DNA of 64,000 nucleotides from Desulfobulbaceae bacterium (lineage in GTDB: Bacteria > Bacteroidota > Ignavibacteria > Kapaibacteriales > UBA2268): NCBI GenBank assembly GCA_018335795.1, contig JAGXRP010000021.1:86-64085 (forward strand), read 5' to 3'. How positions within the stretch are numbered: position 1 is the first letter of the stretch; every line of letters starts with the position of its first letter. This document shows, piece by piece, positions 33,252 through 64,000 of the stretch. Both the position numbers and the translations under genes were made by a program. Below the pieces are notes generated by a model that made no database searches, was not told the DNA's origin, and saw only the letters and a program-made list of their open reading frames with translations.

Positions 33252-34949
33252 ATGAATAATAAACATACGAATATTGATAATATTTTTGATAAAGCTCGAA
33301 ATCTGGAGCCGGTTTTGAATGATAGTGAGGTTCGCGAACTCATTAGCACAAGTACCGTCAATCCGGTGAGTACAGGTATTTTTAATTACGGAGTAAATAA
33401 AATGACTATATTAAGTTCAATGACAGCTCTTGTCGTATCAGGATTGCTACTATTCAATGTAATTGATTCTGATAAACAAGAACCTACAAATAACAAGGCT
33501 ACTGTTGAATTTTCAACTGCAAAATCGAACCCCGTTGCAAAAGAAGAATTACCAAATGACGATGAGAAAGACATGAATAAAAGTAGAATTAAGCCTAATG
33601 AGCTTGCTATGACTACATACGACATTAATGATGACATCGAATTACCCAAAAAAACTGACAAAATTAACGGAATAAATACAATTACATTACCATATAAAGA
33701 TTTAGATTTATACAATATCAAATTCGACACGAAAACTAAAAATTATGAAGTAATTAGTGGGAAGATGCGAATTGCTATTAGTCCGGATATAAAAACACAA
33801 TTTATTGCGAACTCAGAAGATATTGATCTCGATAAAACAATAGTTCCAAAATTAATTACCTCAGCAAATGGTAACGTAAAAATTGCTTTTTTGACTAATA
33901 ATAATGACATTAGCCCTGAGTGGGAGGAAAATAATCCTAATCAAGTGCTTTATACTGAAAGAGTTGATGACCTTTCATTATTAAGTGATGTAAGCCTTGA
34001 TGATTTATTGCCACTAGAACAAATTAATCCATATACTCTTGATTCACTAATTTCAGCTTGGGGAAATTCCGATAACTTGGGTAAATTCGAAATTGATAGA
34101 AGTAAATTATCAGTGCATATGAACAAATTTAATTTAAATGATAACCTGAATTTAGATTCATCTAATTTTGAAAATTTCGAGTTTGAATTTGATTTTAGTA
34201 ACTTTGATAGTAGTTTGAATAAAATTATGATTTTCCAAAGCGATTCATTGCGATTCAACTCAAGTAATATACAAATTGATTTGAATAATTTGGACAGCAT
34301 AATCAACAAGAAAATAGAGCAAAAAATAGTAATTAAACGCCAAAATAACGAATCAAATATTGACTCATTAGGTGAGTCGAAAATGGATAAAATTCACAGA
34401 ATGATGCCCAAAGACAAATTTTCGCATCTTGATAATCGCCTTAAAATGATGACTGAATTGACTGTCAATAAATTAATTCCTGTCCGATTTGATGTTCCGG
34501 ATGGCGGCGCAGACTTAATCTTCTGGTTTGAACCGACAGATGAACTACTCGAAGTCGTGCCGGATAACATCAAATCACAGGTCGCAGCCGAGATTGAAGC
34601 GATTAACAGCAGCGAAGATATTTGCAAAGCGGCACCTGAGACAGGTTCCGAGACTATAATGGACGTTTGGCGTTCGTGTAGTGGTGCAGTCGAAAACATG
34701 ATGGTTTATCCAAATCCTACAAATGGTCCGGTTTCTGTCAATTTCCAATTGAAAGAGGACAGAAAAGTGAAACTTTCGATTCATGACCTTACAGGGAAAT
34801 TATTGATGACACTATCACCGGAAACACTAATTCGCAAAGGCGAATTCCGCGAGAATTTCAATTTGAACAAGTTAACTCCCGGAATGTATTTGCTCGTAGC
34901 CCAAACACACTACGGCGAACAAACTTTGCAACGCATAGTTATTGAATAA
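33252..34949 (+). CDS. Single-pass anti-sigma-like protein with a C-terminal T9SS sorting domain
   Basis: About 50-aa soluble N-terminus, then TM MTILSSMTALVVSGLLLFNVI. C-terminus VYPNPTNGPVSVNF...KLSIHDLTGK...LTPGMYLLVAQT...RIVIE. Starts 1 nt after the sigma stop. Confidence 0.8.
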   Translation: MNNKHTNIDNIFDKARNLEPVLNDSEVRELISTSTVNPVSTGIFNYGVNKMTILSSMTALVVSGLLLFNVIDSDKQEPTNNKATVEFSTAKSNPVAKEELPNDDEKDMNKSRIKPNELAMTTYDINDDIELPKKTDKINGINTITLPYKDLDLYNIKFDTKTKNYEVISGKMRIAISPDIKTQFIANSEDIDLDKTIVPKLITSANGNVKIAFLTNNNDISPEWEENNPNQVLYTERVDDLSLLSDVSLDDLLPLEQINPYTLDSLISAWGNSDNLGKFEIDRSKLSVHMNKFNLNDNLNLDSSNFENFEFEFDFSNFDSSLNKIMIFQSDSLRFNSSNIQIDLNNLDSIINKKIEQKIVIKRQNNESNIDSLGESKMDKIHRMMPKDKFSHLDNRLKMMTELTVNKLIPVRFDVPDGGADLIFWFEPTDELLEVVPDNIKSQVAAEIEAINSSEDICKAAPETGSETIMDVWRSCSGAVENMMVYPNPTNGPVSVNFQLKEDRKVKLSIHDLTGKLLMTLSPETLIRKGEFRENFNLNKLTPGMYLLVAQTHYGEQTLQRIVIE

Positions 34950-52256: not shown

Positions 52257-52272
52257 GAAATGTTTAATATTC

Positions 52273-52305
52273 AGATGGACTCCACCTCGCAGGTGGAGTC
52301 CATCT
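52273..52305. repeat. REP-like perfect palindrome, family A (intergenic)
   Basis: AGATGGACTCCACCT-cgc-AGGTGGAGTCCATCT: 15-bp stem, 3-nt loop, no U-tract. Confidence 0.8.
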
Positions 52306-52313
52306 AAGTCAGG

Positions 52314-53912
52314 CTACATCTTCACAAACATCTGCGTCCTATTGCCGAGTCGCAGATAATACACACCACGATGAAGATGGGAAATATCAATGCGTTGTAG
52401 ATGTCCAACATCTCCAAGATGTTGGACATCTGCTAATTCAAGCACGCATTCGCCAAGAGTATTGAAGATTTGGACAGCGGAACCTTCCGAAGGCTCGAAA
52501 CCTTCGGAAGGTTTCGAAATTGTAATATATTCGCTTGCGGGGTTAGGGCTAATTATTGCGCTGATTTGCACTGATTCGGTGATGCTTGTTGGTTGATTGC
52601 AAATACTGCCGGTGCGGTGAATATTGTTCTGGAACATTGTCCAGTCGGGTCCTTGTCCGGTTCCTGCCGAAATTGCGTATGCTCTGCCGTAATTGCTTTG
52701 CCAATTGGGGTATTCGACAAAACCCCCAATGATGAAAACATCGAGTATTCCGTCGGCGTCAAAATCAGCAACTACCGGAGCATGGTCTATCGAAAACTCT
52801 TTCCCGATGTGGGCAGCAAGGTCAAGAGTCCAAATTTCTGAGCCGTCAATTCCACTAAGCGCTATTACTTGTCCGCCCGTGGTGCCGAAAATCACATCGG
52901 GCAATCCGTCGTCGTCAATATCGGAAAGTGCCGCTCCACGAAAAGATTGCTTGAAATCGGGGATATCATATTCCCACATTACAGTTCCATCAAATTTGAG
53001 TGCATAATAGCGATAGTAGCTCGAAAACACCATTTCGCATTTTCCGTCGCCATCTAAATCTCCGGCAACGACAGGCGAGCCGACATAGGAAATGGCTCTA
53101 AATTTCCAAATCTGCGCACCATCTCCGGCATTTATCGCATACAAATTGCCGTCGTAATCGCCAATTATCAAATCCAATTTACCGTCTTCGTTTACATCGA
53201 GCAATGTTGTGCCATGATAAACCACATCTGCCAAATCGAATGTCCACATTAGTACTTGGTCGTAACCGCGATATGCATAAACTTTGCTTTGATTATTTTC
53301 CTTATTAAATTCCCACGACGCTACTACGAAATCTAATTTTCCGTCACCGTCAAGGTCAACAATTGTCGGGGCAGTTTGAATCCATGAGTTTGTATCCACT
53401 TTTAAGTCCCATTTTTTAATGCCATCGCTTGCGTTGATACATATTACATATCCGCCGAATTGCCCGTGTAAAATCTCCAATTTCCCATCGGTGTCAATAT
53501 CGGCAATTGTAGGAGGTGAATCGCTGCCGCGCGTGAGAGTTTTCCATTTTACTTCGCCTGTTGCTCCATCGAAACAATAGGTGTAGGGATTGCAAGAACT
53601 TGCGACGATAACGTCCAGCAAGCCATCGCCGTCAACGTCGTAAATAAGCGGGGCGGTGTCATTGCAACCCTCCTGCCAATCAGTAGTATTGTACTTCCAG
53701 AGCAATGTGCCATCATCCAAATTGAGAGCATAAACCATGCTATCGTTGCGATAACACCCGAACACTACTTCCAATTTACCGTCATGGTCAAAGTCGGCGA
53801 GTGTGGATTGCCCGTAGGAATTGTCGTTCAGGTCGTACCACCACTTAATTTCAGGTACTTCTGCAACAGAATGGATTGCAATCAACATAAAAATTAGAAT
53901 CAAAATTTTCAT
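52314..53912 (-). CDS. FG-GAP/VCBS-repeat beta-propeller protein with T9SS CTD
   Basis: Signal peptide, eight D(F/V/I/L)DxDGxxD/E motifs, ISPNPASEYITI...IFNTLGECV...ISHLHRGVYYLR...MFVKM. Confidence 0.9.
   Translation of the reverse strand: MKILILIFMLIAIHSVAEVPEIKWWYDLNDNSYGQSTLADFDHDGKLEVVFGCYRNDSMVYALNLDDGTLLWKYNTTDWQEGCNDTAPLIYDVDGDGLLDVIVASSCNPYTYCFDGATGEVKWKTLTRGSDSPPTIADIDTDGKLEILHGQFGGYVICINASDGIKKWDLKVDTNSWIQTAPTIVDLDGDGKLDFVVASWEFNKENNQSKVYAYRGYDQVLMWTFDLADVVYHGTTLLDVNEDGKLDLIIGDYDGNLYAINAGDGAQIWKFRAISYVGSPVVAGDLDGDGKCEMVFSSYYRYYALKFDGTVMWEYDIPDFKQSFRGAALSDIDDDGLPDVIFGTTGGQVIALSGIDGSEIWTLDLAAHIGKEFSIDHAPVVADFDADGILDVFIIGGFVEYPNWQSNYGRAYAISAGTGQGPDWTMFQNNIHRTGSICNQPTSITESVQISAIISPNPASEYITISKPSEGFEPSEGSAVQIFNTLGECVLELADVQHLGDVGHLQRIDISHLHRGVYYLRLGNRTQMFVKM
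52399..52431. repeat. REP-like perfect palindrome, family A, in frame within the CTD
   Basis: AGATGTCCAACATCT-cca-AGATGTTGGACATCT, encoding DVQHLGDVGHL. Confidence 0.8.
52481..52513. repeat. REP-like perfect palindrome, family B, in frame within the CTD
   Basis: AACCTTCCGAAGG-ctcgaaa-CCTTCGGAAGGTT, encoding KPSEGFEPSEG. Confidence 0.8.
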
Positions 53913-56411: not shown

Positions 56412-57908
56412 ATGTTAAAAATTTTACTACTCTCAATTTTTGTATTATTTTTGGGTTATCAAAGTATGATAGCTCAAGAATTTGCCGGCAGTGAATCATG
56501 CAAAGGTTGCCACCCTGCAGCTTATGCAAATTGGAAACAATCCGGACATCCGTATAAAATACAAAAGCTTGATGGGACCAATGGTCCAACTTATCCTGTC
56601 CTATCTTCCCAAAAGACAATAGGAACAGTAATAAACTACACTTTGCATACCGGAGTACCTGAACCTCCTGAAGGTTTGCAATGGAGTGAAATTAGCTTTG
56701 TTCTTGGTGGCTATTGGTCAAATGCTCGCTTCTTAGACAAAGAAGGGTACTTAATCTGGGGAGCAAAACGCCAATATAACCTTGCTACTAGAAAGTGGGT
56801 AAATTATACACAAGCCGATCCCGGGAAAGGGTCATATTCTTACAGTTGCTATCGTTGCCATACAACGGGACCAAGCAAAGAAAAAACACCCGCATTTGAA
56901 GCATATCCCGGTATACAAGGAAGTTGGGCTGAGGCTGGCATTGGATGTGAAGGTTGTCACGGACCAGCAAAATCTCATGTTTCAAATCCTGGTCAGAAAC
57001 CAAGCATAAATCGCGAATGTCTTCCTTGCCATGCTCGTGACAGAGACTTCGAAACAACTACTTATACATGGAATAAAAGAGTTGAATGGCAATCAAGAAC
57101 AGTCAGCGATGTAGCAACCGGTTTTATTCGTCACCGTGAGCAAGGCGATATGATGCTTGCTTCAAAACATGGTGAAATGGGCTTCAATTGTGCAACTTGC
57201 CATGACCCACATAAAGGCGTTTATTTCAATTTAGGTGGAATTAAACCAAGTGCAAGTTGTGAAAATTGCCACACAAATAAAACTATAGTGGGACATGAAT
57301 TTTCAAAAACAAACGCTTCATGTATTGATTGCCACATGCCAAAAGCGGCAAGAAATGGTGACCAATTATCGCCATATGTATCGGAACAAAGCGCACACTA
57401 TTGGAAAATAATTACTGACCCAATAACTATGTTTGAAAATCTGGAGGATATTTCTAATACTGCCACACCTCCTGCTACTTTCAAGTTCATCAAAGTTGAT
57501 GATAATGGAATATCAGGAACAACTTTGGAATACTCATGTTTGCAATGCCATACTGCAAAAGATGTTCAGTGGGCTTCTATTTATGCCAAAGGAATTCACA
57601 AAAACGGTATTACACATATAAATACTCAACCTGGAACTTCATCTGCTTATTCTTTAGGTCAAAACTACCCTAATCCATTCCAACATAGTACTACTATTAG
57701 CTTTATTTTACCAAAAGCATCAAATGTTACTTTAAATGTTTATAATGCTTTAGGTCAACAGGTAGCTGTACTTATTGACAATGTGTGGATGAATGGAGGT
57801 ACGCATAAAATTGATTTCCATGCAAAAGGATTACCTAACGGAGCTTATATATACAGCATTCAAGCTAATAATTTTGGATTTTCACGTAAAATGATTTTGA
57901 GTCAATAA
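56412..57908 (+). CDS. Octaheme c-type cytochrome with T9SS C-terminal sorting domain
   Basis: Signal peptide. Eight CXXCH motifs: CKGCH, CYRCH, CEGCH, CLPCH, CATCH, CENCH, CIDCH, CLQCH. Tail LGQNYPNPF...VYNALGQQV...LPNGAYIYSIQ...KMILSQ. AGGAG RBS. Confidence 0.92.
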   Translation: MLKILLLSIFVLFLGYQSMIAQEFAGSESCKGCHPAAYANWKQSGHPYKIQKLDGTNGPTYPVLSSQKTIGTVINYTLHTGVPEPPEGLQWSEISFVLGGYWSNARFLDKEGYLIWGAKRQYNLATRKWVNYTQADPGKGSYSYSCYRCHTTGPSKEKTPAFEAYPGIQGSWAEAGIGCEGCHGPAKSHVSNPGQKPSINRECLPCHARDRDFETTTYTWNKRVEWQSRTVSDVATGFIRHREQGDMMLASKHGEMGFNCATCHDPHKGVYFNLGGIKPSASCENCHTNKTIVGHEFSKTNASCIDCHMPKAARNGDQLSPYVSEQSAHYWKIITDPITMFENLEDISNTATPPATFKFIKVDDNGISGTTLEYSCLQCHTAKDVQWASIYAKGIHKNGITHINTQPGTSSAYSLGQNYPNPFQHSTTISFILPKASNVTLNVYNALGQQVAVLIDNVWMNGGTHKIDFHAKGLPNGAYIYSIQANNFGFSRKMILSQ

Positions 57909-61474: not shown

Positions 61475-63016
61475 TCAACTTTCCGGCAAATTGATCAAAT
61501 TTTGTTTAATTTCATCAATTCCGACAAAAGCTACAAAATTTATAATTCCAAAAACTCTTTCTTGCAATTTACTATTAGGCAAAATCAGATTTCTAATTTG
61601 CATAAACCTATCAATAAACTCTTCGTTTGACTTTTTCTGAGACGATATTGCTTTCTTTCTAATGTGAATAAGTTGCTCTACAGATTTCGTAAAAGCCGAT
61701 GCCACACTTTTTTCAAGATTTTTGTCAATTTTAATGATATGCCCGGACAATTCATTGTAAATTTGCTTTAGTGTCAGTTCAGCATTCAAGAATGCTAATT
61801 CAGCTTCGTCGCTAAATATATATTTAGGAATTATTTGCATAAATTCATCTTGGTGCGATTTGAATATTTCGGGGTTAATATCATATTTTTCCATAAAACG
61901 AAGACTGCGATTATCTAAGATTGTTACGCTGTGCCGAAGTATAATTCTTGGCATAATAATATTATAATAATTATATAATTTATTTAATTGCGCCAAATAT
62001 GCTAATTCGCCCGGACCTGCAATATATGCCGCAGTCGGCAATACAGCATCTTGCATCAATGGACGTAATAATACTTTCGGGGAAAATGAAATAGGATTTT
62101 CGCTAAATAATTGCTTATAATCATCAAGATTATCTGAATTAATATTTTCGCGAATATTATTTCGGTGATAAAATAAATTAATATCGGAAATTTGTGCTTG
62201 CAAATGATAGCCGAGCGATAATAATTCATCATTTGTTTGATTAACAATTTCAGAAGTTTGCCCGGTATTGTTGAGTTCTTTTTCAGTGAATTTGGCAAAA
62301 AGACCATGCTCTCGAAATTTTTCAGCCGAAATAAATATAAATCCACAATCCGCAATAAAATAGTTAATGAACGTAACAAATGCTTCAGACCACGATTTGC
62401 CGACAGCATAAGAATCATCTAACACCTTCATGATTTCATCGGCATATTGAGTATTTTTTATTGCAACTGCCACTTGCTCTTTTAACCCGGTGATATCATC
62501 GCCAAAGAATCGGTTTGCAATGCTTACGTTTTCCGAATCATAAACTGCACTTAGATTTACAAGCGATAAATTGCTATCGAATAGGTTAATATTGCCGGCT
62601 TCAACAGCGTCGTGGTCGTTATCAGCTACCCAAAATACAGGGACAAAGTCGAATTCGGCGTGTTTAATCTTCATTTTTCGTGCGTAATCAAATGCCGAAA
62701 ATGCCTTTGTCAGGCTATAAATCGGACCACCGAAAAGTCCGGGTTGCTGACCTGTCACAATTGCTAAAGCTTTCCCCGAGCATAATTTTTCGAGATTTTC
62801 GGATTGCAATTCATTCAAGTGCAAATAATGCATTGTGTTCTTGCAAACCTCACGAAGCCTTGAATAGTCGTCTTTACTCTTTAAAATTGCATCAAAAAAG
62901 TGCTTGTCATCGTGACGAGTATTATTGGATAAAAAGCGAGCAGCAAATTCGTCAGAGCGGATAAAATCCCGCACTAACTTCGATGAGCCGCCCAATTCGT
63001 TTGCAATAAGTTTCAT
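61475..63016 (-). CDS. bshC: Bacillithiol biosynthesis cysteine-adding enzyme
   Basis: IVTGQQPGLFGGPIYSLTK, VPVFWVADNDHD, FSPKVLLRPLMQDAVLPTAAYIAGPGELAYLAQL, LQERV. Confidence 0.9.
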   Translation of the reverse strand: MKLIANELGGSSKLVRDFIRSDEFAARFLSNNTRHDDKHFFDAILKSKDDYSRLREVCKNTMHYLHLNELQSENLEKLCSGKALAIVTGQQPGLFGGPIYSLTKAFSAFDYARKMKIKHAEFDFVPVFWVADNDHDAVEAGNINLFDSNLSLVNLSAVYDSENVSIANRFFGDDITGLKEQVAVAIKNTQYADEIMKVLDDSYAVGKSWSEAFVTFINYFIADCGFIFISAEKFREHGLFAKFTEKELNNTGQTSEIVNQTNDELLSLGYHLQAQISDINLFYHRNNIRENINSDNLDDYKQLFSENPISFSPKVLLRPLMQDAVLPTAAYIAGPGELAYLAQLNKLYNYYNIIMPRIILRHSVTILDNRSLRFMEKYDINPEIFKSHQDEFMQIIPKYIFSDEAELAFLNAELTLKQIYNELSGHIIKIDKNLEKSVASAFTKSVEQLIHIRKKAISSQKKSNEEFIDRFMQIRNLILPNSKLQERVFGIINFVAFVGIDEIKQNLINLPES

Positions 63017-63118
63017 ATTTCAAATCAAAATTTATACTAACTCAAAATGAACCAAATTATTGCTTTGGAAGAATTCATGATTTCACCTTAGTTGTCACAA
63101 CTGACAGGACAAGAGGTA

Positions 63119-63167
63119 GGGGTTCGGGGCTTGGGGCTTGGGGTTTGGGGCTTGGGGTTCGGGGTTT
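63119..63167 (+). repeat. Seven tandem 7-bp repeats GGGGYTY
   Basis: ggggttc ggggctt ggggctt ggggttt ggggctt ggggttc ggggttt. Confidence 0.9.
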
Positions 63168-63206
63168 AATACAACGAAGTGGTTAAATTTCTATAGAAAA
63201 CATTCA

Positions 63207-63237
63207 ACCTTCCGAAGTTTCCAAAGCTTCGGAAGGT
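63207..63237. repeat. REP-like palindrome, family B (intergenic)
   Basis: ACCTTCCGAAG-9 nt-CTTCGGAAGGT. Arms and spacing are identical to the in-frame copy at 52482..52512. Confidence 0.8.
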
Positions 63238-63495
63238 ATTTTTTTTATCTCTGAAATTAGCCATGTATAAAGACATCACAATAATAAAAACGATCCATTA
63301 TGTATGTAATTATCATAAATGAATAAAATATAATTTGTTAATATCATAATTGTTGCTTAAATTAGTATTGTGTTACAATGATTTGCTTTAAATATGTTTT
63401 CATGAGTGTTGATTTTCTCTATTCTAAACAATCTTCCATGCTCAAACAAAATAAAAAATTGAAAACTTTATTTTTTTTTAAATAGGAGTGTATTT

Positions 63496-64000
63496 ATGAA
63501 GAGAATTATTCAGGCTGTATTTTTTGTATTGATGTTTTTGTTTGTAACTGATTACATTCAAGCTCAAACAACATATTTTGTAAAGCATGATGCAGCAGGA
63601 GCTAACAACGGCTCAAGCTGGGGCGACGCCTTTACGTCATTCCAATCGGCTCTAGATGTAGCAACGTTAGGCGATGAAATCTGGGTAGCTGCAGGGACTT
63701 ACAAACCAAGTTATGATTATGGATTAGGAGGCGGGTCTAGATATAATCATTTCAGAATGATAGAAGGTGTAGAAATCTATGGTGGCTTTGCCGGGACAGA
63801 AAGTAATGTCTCAGAAAGGACAGATTTTGGTGACGGAGGTGCTAATGAAACTATATTAAGTGGGGACATTGGCTCAATAGGAGACCATACTGATAACTGC
63901 TACCACGTTTTATATCATCCAAGCGGATGGGGACTAACAAGTGCTGCAGTTCTAGACGGCTTTACCATCCAACATGGTTATGCAGACGGAGTTGCAGAAC
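63496..64000 (+). CDS. Secreted pectin-lyase-like/parallel beta-helix protein (runs off the window end; absent from ORF track)
   Basis: AGGAG RBS. MKRIIQAVFFVLMFLFVTDYIQAQTTYFVKHDAAGANNGSSWGDAFTSFQSAL...GDEIWVAAGTYKP...IYGGFAGTE...TILSGDIG...VLDGFTIQHG. Confidence 0.85.
   Translation, partial: MKRIIQAVFFVLMFLFVTDYIQAQTTYFVKHDAAGANNGSSWGDAFTSFQSALDVATLGDEIWVAAGTYKPSYDYGLGGGSRYNHFRMIEGVEIYGGFAGTESNVSERTDFGDGGANETILSGDIGSIGDHTDNCYHVLYHPSGWGLTSAAVLDGFTIQHGYADGVAE

Follow-up and report, generated by a model that had tools for sequence, protein, structure and literature searches.

The window, by which we mean the whole stretch of 64,000 nucleotides that was analysed (C21:86-64085 of a genome designated here G000), encodes a protein, P0001, that ends in a type A C-terminal sorting domain (CTD) of the type IX secretion system (T9SS). 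This domain contains, in frame, a short palindrome of a family that we call family B, and a second copy of the same palindrome lies free in intergenic DNA. We argue below that family B probably derives from a repetitive extragenic palindromic (REP) element. The features concerned are the following.

52314..53912, minus strand: host gene P0001, encoding a 532-aa protein with an FG-GAP beta-propeller and a type A T9SS C-terminal sorting domain
52481..52513, minus (coding) strand: family B palindrome within loop 1 of the P0001 CTD, read in frame as KPSEGFEPSEG
52495..52517 (C21:52580-52602), no strand: nested 23-nt perfect palindrome TCGAAACCTTCGGAAGGTTTCGA, which exhibits the 18-nt periodicity of the element
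63206..63246, plus strand: intergenic family B copy (the copy itself at 63207-63237) with a T-run, terminator-like by consensus scan

The CTD of P0001 (approximately 52317-52553) matched PF18962 (Por_Secre_tail) over residues 454-530 with 39.2-42.5 bits, the cut-off being 27. An earlier note on this DNA had described a perfect 33-nt hairpin just after a PNP..YITI strand of the domain. Both its sequence, AACCTTCCGAAGGCTCGAAACCTTCGGAAGGTT, and its translation were confirmed, KPSEGFEPSEG lying immediately C-terminal of ..PNPASEYITI. The perfect arms of the DNA measure 13 bp, and folding as RNA gave 15 pairs, including one G-U, and -22.9 kcal/mol. The intergenic copy was also found where it had been placed: ACCTTCCGAAG-N9-CTTCGGAAGGT recurs at 63207-63237, followed by ATTTTTTTT, between the divergent bshC (61475..63016, minus strand) and an unassigned open reading frame (ORF) starting at 63496, and its RNA folds with -20.6 kcal/mol. 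The motif was observed twice in the window and not once in 100 dinucleotide shuffles. No perfect inverted repeat was present in the window's two other CTDs (34704-34943 and 57666-57896), in agreement with the statement that these lack the segment.

Family B consists of two inverted 15-nt units, AACCTTC[C/G]GAAGGTT, around a 3-nt centre. Each arm is itself a near-palindrome, AACCTTC-S-GAAGGTT, in which the central base alone sets the orientation of the unit, and two inverted units spaced by 18 nt make up the 33-nt perfect hairpin. Because of this structure of the arms, the 33-mer is at the same time an 18-nt direct repeat, which yields the peptide repeat PSEGFE/PSEGSA. All six frames of the family are free of stop codons; it begins with AACC, finishes with GGTT and carries neither a GTAG nor a CGTC tag.

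Family B copies and the loops of the CTD

The G000 assembly (3.53 Mb, 37% GC, 99.9% complete) was found to contain 7 exact-core copies of family B, and 14 by a loose search, so that the family exceeds the two copies seen in the window. Four of the 14 loose copies lie inside CTDs (contigs C21, C8, C9 and C38), at an identical site and in an identical frame throughout, and four others 30-240 nt downstream of CTD genes, the remainder being in other intergenic DNA. Perfect inverted repeats with arms of at least 10 nt numbered 288 in the genome, compared with 49 in a shuffle. The 198 CTDs of G000 are coded by 1.26% of the genome, and this small fraction contained 24 of the 288 repeats and 18 of the 108 with arms of at least 12 nt. 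An enrichment in CTD-coding DNA, which the earlier note had raised, was thus found for strong repeats in general as well as for B. In other long ORFs of G000, perfect repeats are nearly all AT-rich singletons with arms of 10-11 nt, at chance level. Many palindromes lie 8-60 nt past the stop codons of CTD genes.

The palindromes within CTDs mark one subfamily, approximately 22 of the 198 members, with the pattern ..PNPA[ST]EYI[ET]I-[loop 1]-IKIFNTLGECV-[loop 2]-RIDISHLPRGVYYLRIGNRTQMFVK[MV]. Loop 1 contains B, AACAAGGGGTTGCAACCCCTTGTT (NKGLQPLVNNE), ATCAACCCTACGGTTAACCGTAGGGTTGAT (INPTVNRRVDEG) or others; loop 2 contains AGATGTCCAACATCT-NNN-AGATGTTGGACATCT (DVQHLGDVGHL; family A), GTAGAGACAATTCATGAATTGTCTCTAC (VETIHELSLQ), ATTCATCCGATGACT-NNN-AGTCATCGGATGAAT (IHPMTPSHRM) or others. 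Some of the other loop palindromes begin with GTAG (GTAGAGACAATTCAT.., GTAGGGGCAAAT..), and other cassettes are palindromes of 24-30 nt with odd flanks. The proposal that a length divisible by three preserves the frame therefore held only in part: B is in frame, but, in view of these other cassettes, its length is a survivorship effect. For the strongest 45-nt hairpin, the median energy was -21 kcal/mol among members of the subfamily, 71% of which reached -15 or lower, versus -10.3 (5%) in the other 174 CTDs and -11.4 (11%) in random coding windows. The idea that strong hairpins are a general property of CTDs was accordingly rejected, since only the NTLGECV/GVYYLRIG subfamily has them.

Public short-read assemblies (Logan contigs from eight runs) all break within 52270-52540 of the window, a region across which the summed depth rises 5-10 fold. 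The tails of these CTDs thus systematically cause contigs to end; contigs C8, C39, C62, C38 and C53 of the G000 assembly also begin or finish in such tails.

Several observations indicated that the palindromes are inserts in the domain, as the note had supposed. The loops are 8-11 residues shorter in the shortest CTDs of G000 and in a cassette-free relative in G008, and orthologues contain other palindromes at the same place (see below). In an AlphaFold2 model of the CTD (98-aa query; predicted local distance difference test, pLDDT, 73.6), which is a beta-sandwich of 7 strands, the B peptide (query residues 33-45) forms a low-confidence coil between confident strands, and the family A peptide is a coil with a pLDDT below 50. 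Decayed cassettes were also found, NKALQPIVNNE with -3.5 kcal/mol and INHMLKSGVEAV with -5.4 kcal/mol; such degenerate forms are what one would expect of passengers. Among the CTD copies of B, the 33-nt core is 94% identical, versus 68-74% for the flanks, and family A cores are 0.98 identical, versus 0.83-0.88 for the surrounding coding DNA.

We considered the possibility that the peptide itself is selected, the tandem PSEG(F/S)E acting as a flexible or modified CTD linker and the palindromy of the DNA being incidental. The direct repeat of 18 nt corresponds to 6 codons, the metagenome-assembled genome (MAG) ELA738 has both a two-unit KPSEGFEPSEG (L016) and a one-unit KPSEG (L017), and the frame is the same in all CTDs and also in a transposase-like gene of G018 described below. 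Yet the same DNA is non-coding in several genomes and beside transposase genes, unrelated peptides that have only palindromic DNA in common occupy the same loop, and the region is predicted to be disordered. Furthermore, substitutions in the CTD copies of B are few, both arm substitutions being non-synonymous, while synonymous arm sites are frozen. Palindromic DNA was present under every peptide-bearing CTD examined (four in G000; L009 and L010, from G003 and G002; L016, from MAG ELA738), and no homologue among them kept the peptide on non-palindromic DNA. Selection of the peptide is thus very improbable.

Exchange of cassettes between CTD tails

P0001 has orthologues in two congeners, G003 (Ignavibacteriae bacterium HGW-Ignavibacteriae-1; 84% identity) and G002 (81%). 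At the 3' end, the three genes are approximately 85-90% identical on either side of each loop, and the loops themselves are unalignable. In the G003 orthologue, loop 1 is occupied by the NKGLQP palindrome and loop 2 by family A; in the G002 orthologue, loop 1 is occupied by the INPTVN palindrome and loop 2 by the imperfect palindrome CCCGCTCACCCTTCGACAGGCTCAGGGAGCGGG. The remoter orthologues (G016, G010 and G029) have ordinary CTDs. Divergence in situ from one ancestral palindrome was rejected for the main cassettes, because the loops cannot be aligned though the flanks of the orthologues are so similar. The strand-coding segments of the P0001 CTD are 0.85-0.90 identical to those of B-bearing paralogues, versus 0.73-0.82 to those of the orthologues. 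The combinations of loop 1 and loop 2 close a four-gamete cycle (B with IHPMT, INPTVN with IHPMT, INPTVN with VET.., B with VET..). Taken together, the unalignable loops, the closeness to paralogues and the four-gamete cycle suggest that CTD tails have exchanged their cassettes by recombination.

All CTD copies of B occupy one site and one frame. This shows no indication of repeated transposition of B into CTDs, and the likely history is therefore a single colonisation, from which B spread to the CTD tails of paralogues. The suggestion that a REP-like element colonises CTD loops was accordingly retained for the REP-like insert and given up for repeated colonisation.

Fragments of CTD tails were also found outside genes. 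One orphan tail (C6:134487-134666) lies in an intergenic REP cluster, its 5' edge being a single B unit, and another (C77:92586-92729) begins at a loop-2 cassette directly past the terminator of an unrelated gene. The cluster around the former (C6:134380-135100) also contains a AGATGGGCTCCACCT palindrome, two GTAGGGACAGCAAC REPs and a free loop-2 cassette that elsewhere encodes PSAGASTPQEGNL, and a truncated tail at C36:89941-90057, in intergenic DNA, adjoins a CCCACAATCGAAACCGTGGG REP. The orphan tails could be deletion remnants or signs of tails moving as REP-bounded units.

We considered therefore a second explanation, in which the palindromes are recombination-active boundaries and the stretch bounded by a loop cassette and by the REP past the stop codon is a REPIN-like unit, moved or grafted by a REP-associated tyrosine transposase (RAYT) or by hairpin-stimulated recombination, thereby spreading secretion tags. 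The orphan tails begin exactly at a cassette, unrelated cargo genes have a common tail and 3' untranslated region (UTR), the CTD tail of P0001 is nearer to paralogues than to orthologues, and the four-gamete cycle is present. However, the orphan tails are equally well explained as deletion remnants ending at hairpins, ordinary homologous recombination among the approximately 22 similar tails accounts for the mosaics, G000 has no RAYT, and neither a target duplication nor a precise junction signature was found. Such mobile tails are quite improbable. The broader proposal that RAYT- or hairpin-driven cutting, copying and grafting of REP-bounded tails lets selfish repeats shuffle T9SS export tags and help to recruit cargo is decidedly unlikely as well; under it, tail grafting would have left its traces in the orphan tails, whose starts coincide with a B unit or a loop-2 cassette.

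RAYT-like genes and neighbouring hairpins

The core pattern CTTCCGAAG-N9-15-CTTCGGAAG was counted in 31 genomes, the reversed pattern serving as control. Copies numbered 7 in G000, 10 in G002, 29 in G003, 16 in G009, 10 in G018 and 5 in G008; two genomes had 1 copy and 23 had none, including the congener G001, so that the distribution is patchy. The control gave 0-1 per genome. The sampled copies of G009 and G018 are all intergenic, with none in a CTD, and in G009 the palindrome is part of a longer conserved repeat, present in both orientations. In G003, at least 9 of the 29 copies are in CTD loop 1.

A profile search with PF01797, which gave a match in 23 of the 31 relatives, found no RAYT in G000. 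A tblastn search of G000 with four congeneric RAYTs and a RAYT-like protein of G003 returned only a 43-aa remnant (C43:75974-76102), which belongs to a different RAYT, with REPs of the type CCCACGGTT..AACCGTGGG. Within C43:75950-76110, this remnant is 91% identical to the G002:C6 RAYT and has its ATAGCCCACGAATTTATTCGTGGG hairpin upstream, while unrelated sequence has taken the place of the rest of the gene. The RAYTs of G001 and G002 were rejected as partners of B, as they are flanked by other short REPs and not by B.

The RAYT-like protein of G003, a member of the same genus as G000, has the motifs HFHFLV and YIHQNP. It scored 27 bits with PF01797, above the cut-off of 23 bits, and 64.5 bits (E 9e-18) with NF047646 (REP_Tyr_transposase), below the cut-off of 80 bits. 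Its gene is bracketed by six AGACTTC[CG]GAAGTCT units, the flanking units being AGACTTCSGAAGTCT. Close homologues were present only in G009 (60% identity), G018 (59-72%) and G008 (a fragment, 63%), and all four holders of such a protein (identity of at least 59%) have at least 5 copies of B. The G018 gene has B units on both sides, at 1427/1445/1474 and 2287/2331/2349, and is an intact ORF of 194 aa after merging of the 55 nt by which the sequences on either side of a 100-N scaffold gap overlap. This ORF contains its own in-frame B palindrome (SSEGFKPSEDS; L060, G018:C67, 1836-1868), at which it is 22 aa longer than its G003 homologue, an in-frame insertion independent of those in CTDs. A homologue in G014, with two in-frame TGA codons, is flanked by AACTTTC[CG]GAAAGTT units (AACTTTCSGAAAGTT), a variant that also occurs in loop 1 of a G014 CTD (KLSESSKLSES). 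The third of the sister families, AAACTTC[CG]GAAGTTT, lies between genes in G000 and occupies loop 1 of a G003 CTD (TSEVLETSEV). The association of a RAYT with the same palindromes, envisaged in the earlier note, was thus observed in G018, where AACCTTC[CG]GAAGGTT flanks the gene on both sides, and with covarying sister units in G003 and G014, but not in G000. Among 20 distinct 33-mers, 97% of cells pair and 5 of the 15 pairs have changed on both sides, which none of 500 shuffles reached, though this count is weakened by the pre-selection of the set for at least 13 of 15 pairs.

Further hairpins surround the two copies in the window.

52399..52431, minus strand: family A palindrome AGATGTCCAACATCT-NNN-AGATGTTGGACATCT, translated in frame as DVQHLGDVGHL within loop 2 of the P0001 CTD
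52273..52305, minus strand: third 33-nt perfect palindrome, AGATGGACTCCACCT-CGC-AGGTGGAGTCCATCT, 8 nt beyond the P0001 stop, of a 3-copy family
63136..63250, plus strand: repeated module of approximately 115 nt, with GGGGYTY heptamer repeats, a conserved spacer, the B palindrome and the T-run

All 8 genomic copies of family A are within CTDs. The palindrome after the stop codon folds as RNA with -26.7 kcal/mol. We considered whether these hairpins are functional RNA elements of T9SS-cargo genes, which protect 3' ends from exonucleases or pause ribosomes or polymerase, their stems being selected whatever the origin of the repeat. The 3' end of P0001 has three perfect 15-bp hairpins in 240 nt, the cores are better conserved than neighbouring coding DNA, compensatory changes preserve the stem across sister families, and palindromes are frequent at 8-60 nt past CTD gene stops. 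A metatranscriptome contig spans 52442-52636, so the B hairpin of P0001 is present in mRNA, and the intergenic copy with its T-run was positive in the terminator consensus scan. Yet such hairpins are present in only approximately 22 of the 198 CTDs, decayed cassettes remain in apparently intact genes, and unrelated sequences are swapped between orthologues. RNA contigs, few and of low depth, cross the intergenic copy and continue 100-160 nt beyond the T-run. The covariation tracks RAYT lineages, and co-evolution of REP and RAYT alone explains it. We regard an RNA function as the reason for these hairpins as unlikely.

The palindromes at 52399-52431 and 52273-52305 have AGATG...CATCT ends in common, and a third AGATG family (AGATGTGCCACAC..) is located after other CTD genes; in these families, the ends are common to all and the inner bases covary. 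The 115-nt module has an approximately 90% identical copy 5.2 kb further on, outside the window (C21:68400-68495). It lies past the stop codon of a gene (C21:68250-68400) that ends in ..PTLGEWGLIALGLLFASFGGWYVMRRLV, a sequence resembling a sorting signal of the IPTL-CTERM type rather than the CTD of the T9SS. Seven tandem GGGGYTY heptamers (63117-63166) precede the intergenic B copy. The B copy at C21:68457 has this G-rich tract upstream as well, and in the G009 repeat B comes after a stretch rich in GGGG. Neither B copy nor the 115-nt module had a match in Rfam. A CGTC-type palindrome, CCGTCAGTTGT-N-ACAACTGACGG, recurs next to several B copies (63093-63107 in the window; C53:4700-4830, C8:86452-86476, C43:34040 and C66:148730 in G000). 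At C43:34060-34160, the IHPMT arms ATTCATCCGATGACT and AGTCATCGGATGAAT are approximately 66 nt apart, compared with 3 elsewhere, an arrangement that resembles a miniature inverted-repeat element or a palindrome with a loop insert.

Origin of family B and related systems

We consider it probable that B is the REP-type repeat of a RAYT clade now lost from G000, that it entered CTD loop 1 once, in frame, was tolerated there and spread by recombination, as did other REPs at both loops. The clade in question would be that of the tyrosine HUH/Y1 transposases with HFHFLV and YIHQNP, found in related Kapabacteria-like genomes, and would have mobilised the repeat. One copy of B would have inserted in frame in the first surface loop of a T9SS CTD; the insertion was presumably tolerated, and neutral for the protein, because the loop has no fixed structure and none of the six frames of the element is interrupted by a stop. 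From this first CTD, B would have moved to paralogous and orthologous tails by homologous recombination or gene conversion via the conserved DNA that codes for the flanking strands. Other REP families may have taken the same course at loop 1 and loop 2, as a result of which the loops would now act as exchangeable palindrome cassettes. The intergenic copies would be ordinary extragenic members, in 3' UTRs, terminator-like modules and REP clusters. The copy number, the loop lengths, the coil in the model and the link with RAYT-like genes elsewhere support the earlier view of a REP-like element in tolerant CTD loops.

Several points weigh against this explanation. There is no intact RAYT of any kind in G000, so that the B copies cannot now be mobile by the RAYT route. 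A number of 7-29 copies is low for a REP family, and B lacks the GTAG/CGTC tag of the classical REP superfamilies. The RAYT-like proteins fall under the NCBIfam cut-off (64.5 vs 80 bits), the G018 gene crosses a scaffold gap and the G014 gene has in-frame TGA codons; the pre-selection of the covariation set belongs here too. Direct transposition into a CTD would rest on a single event, the site and frame being the same everywhere. The conservation of palindrome cores above that of their flanks (0.94 vs 0.68-0.74 for B) could be explained by selection on the hairpin equally well as by recent spread. Finally, no empty-site or alternative-cassette alleles were seen in the Logan contigs of eight runs, which break at the palindromes.

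These repeats have practical consequences. Short-read assemblies break in the CTD tails, which also make protein diversity look greater than it is. Where T9SS cargo of Kapabacteria/Ignavibacteriota contains peptides like KPSEGFEPSEG, DVQHLGDVGHL and VETIHELSLQ, these should be taken for products of repeats and not for functional motifs. The loops mark positions of the T9SS signal that tolerate insertions of approximately 11 residues, which is useful for tagging. If it were true that tails move as REP-bounded cassettes, this would be a mechanism by which secretion tags spread.

Both REP elements and palindromes inserted in frame are known from textbooks, and the element as such is thus no surprise. 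The closest system is that of REPs and bacterial interspersed mosaic elements (BIME) with their RAYT (TnpA_REP), as in the REPtrons of E. coli, Pseudomonas and Stenotrophomonas (Di Nocera et al. 2013, PMC3733652), and intragenic REPs as well as in-frame Rickettsia palindromic elements are on record (PMC3733652). Like REP/BIME, the families described here are short hairpin repeats, with several families per genome and occasional copies within ORFs; some of their copies are 3' of genes and clustered, as those of REP/BIME mostly are. As in REPtrons, a single-copy gene for a putative HUH/Y1 transposase is bracketed by its own repeats, and repeat and transposase lineage covary. Unlike REPs, B is tagless and of low copy number, its unit is a fully self-complementary 15-mer (both an inverted and a direct repeat), and the intragenic copies are concentrated in one protein domain (4 of 14 in G000, at least 9 of 29 in G003). 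Unlike in REPtrons, the transposase clade (HFHFLV / YIHQNP) is below the NCBIfam equivalog cut-off, and G000 has lost the transposase.

By description, a second analogy is provided by an in-frame palindromic repeat in surface-exposed parts of functional proteins, which adds a short peptide and leaves the fold unbroken. Such are the Rickettsia palindromic elements (RPE), which Ogata and colleagues reportedly described in 2000 as inserted in frame in protein-coding genes. In contrast to RPEs, which measure 100-150 bp and are spread over many unrelated genes, the elements studied here are 24-33 nt long and occupy two fixed loops of one domain, where several families replace one another between orthologues. 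The small dispersed repeats (SDR) of cyanobacteria, reportedly described by Elhai and colleagues in 2008, are also hairpin repeats of approximately 20-30 nt in intergenic and conserved coding regions, with the frame kept; unlike the present ones, SDRs are not known to have a linked transposase or a preference for one domain.

As for the domain, it resembles the type A T9SS CTD (PF18962 / TIGR04183) in its PNP..YI strand, its G.Y motif, its final strands and its beta-sandwich model. It differs from ordinary members in that, in the subfamily (..IFNTLGECV..RIDISHLPRGVYYLRIGNRTQMFVKM), peptides encoded by palindromes make both loops longer. We found no paper connecting T9SS CTDs with palindromic repeats in the literature. 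What is new is, first, that several REP families are concentrated in two loops of one secretion-signal domain, to which the coding copies of G000 are almost confined; second, that close orthologues differ by whole palindrome cassettes at both loops; and third, that three lineages each pair a RAYT-like gene with their own covarying variant of a self-complementary 15-mer. The tagless self-complementary unit, the turnover of cassettes between close orthologues and the palindrome inside a RAYT gene are the features that distinguish this system from those known before.

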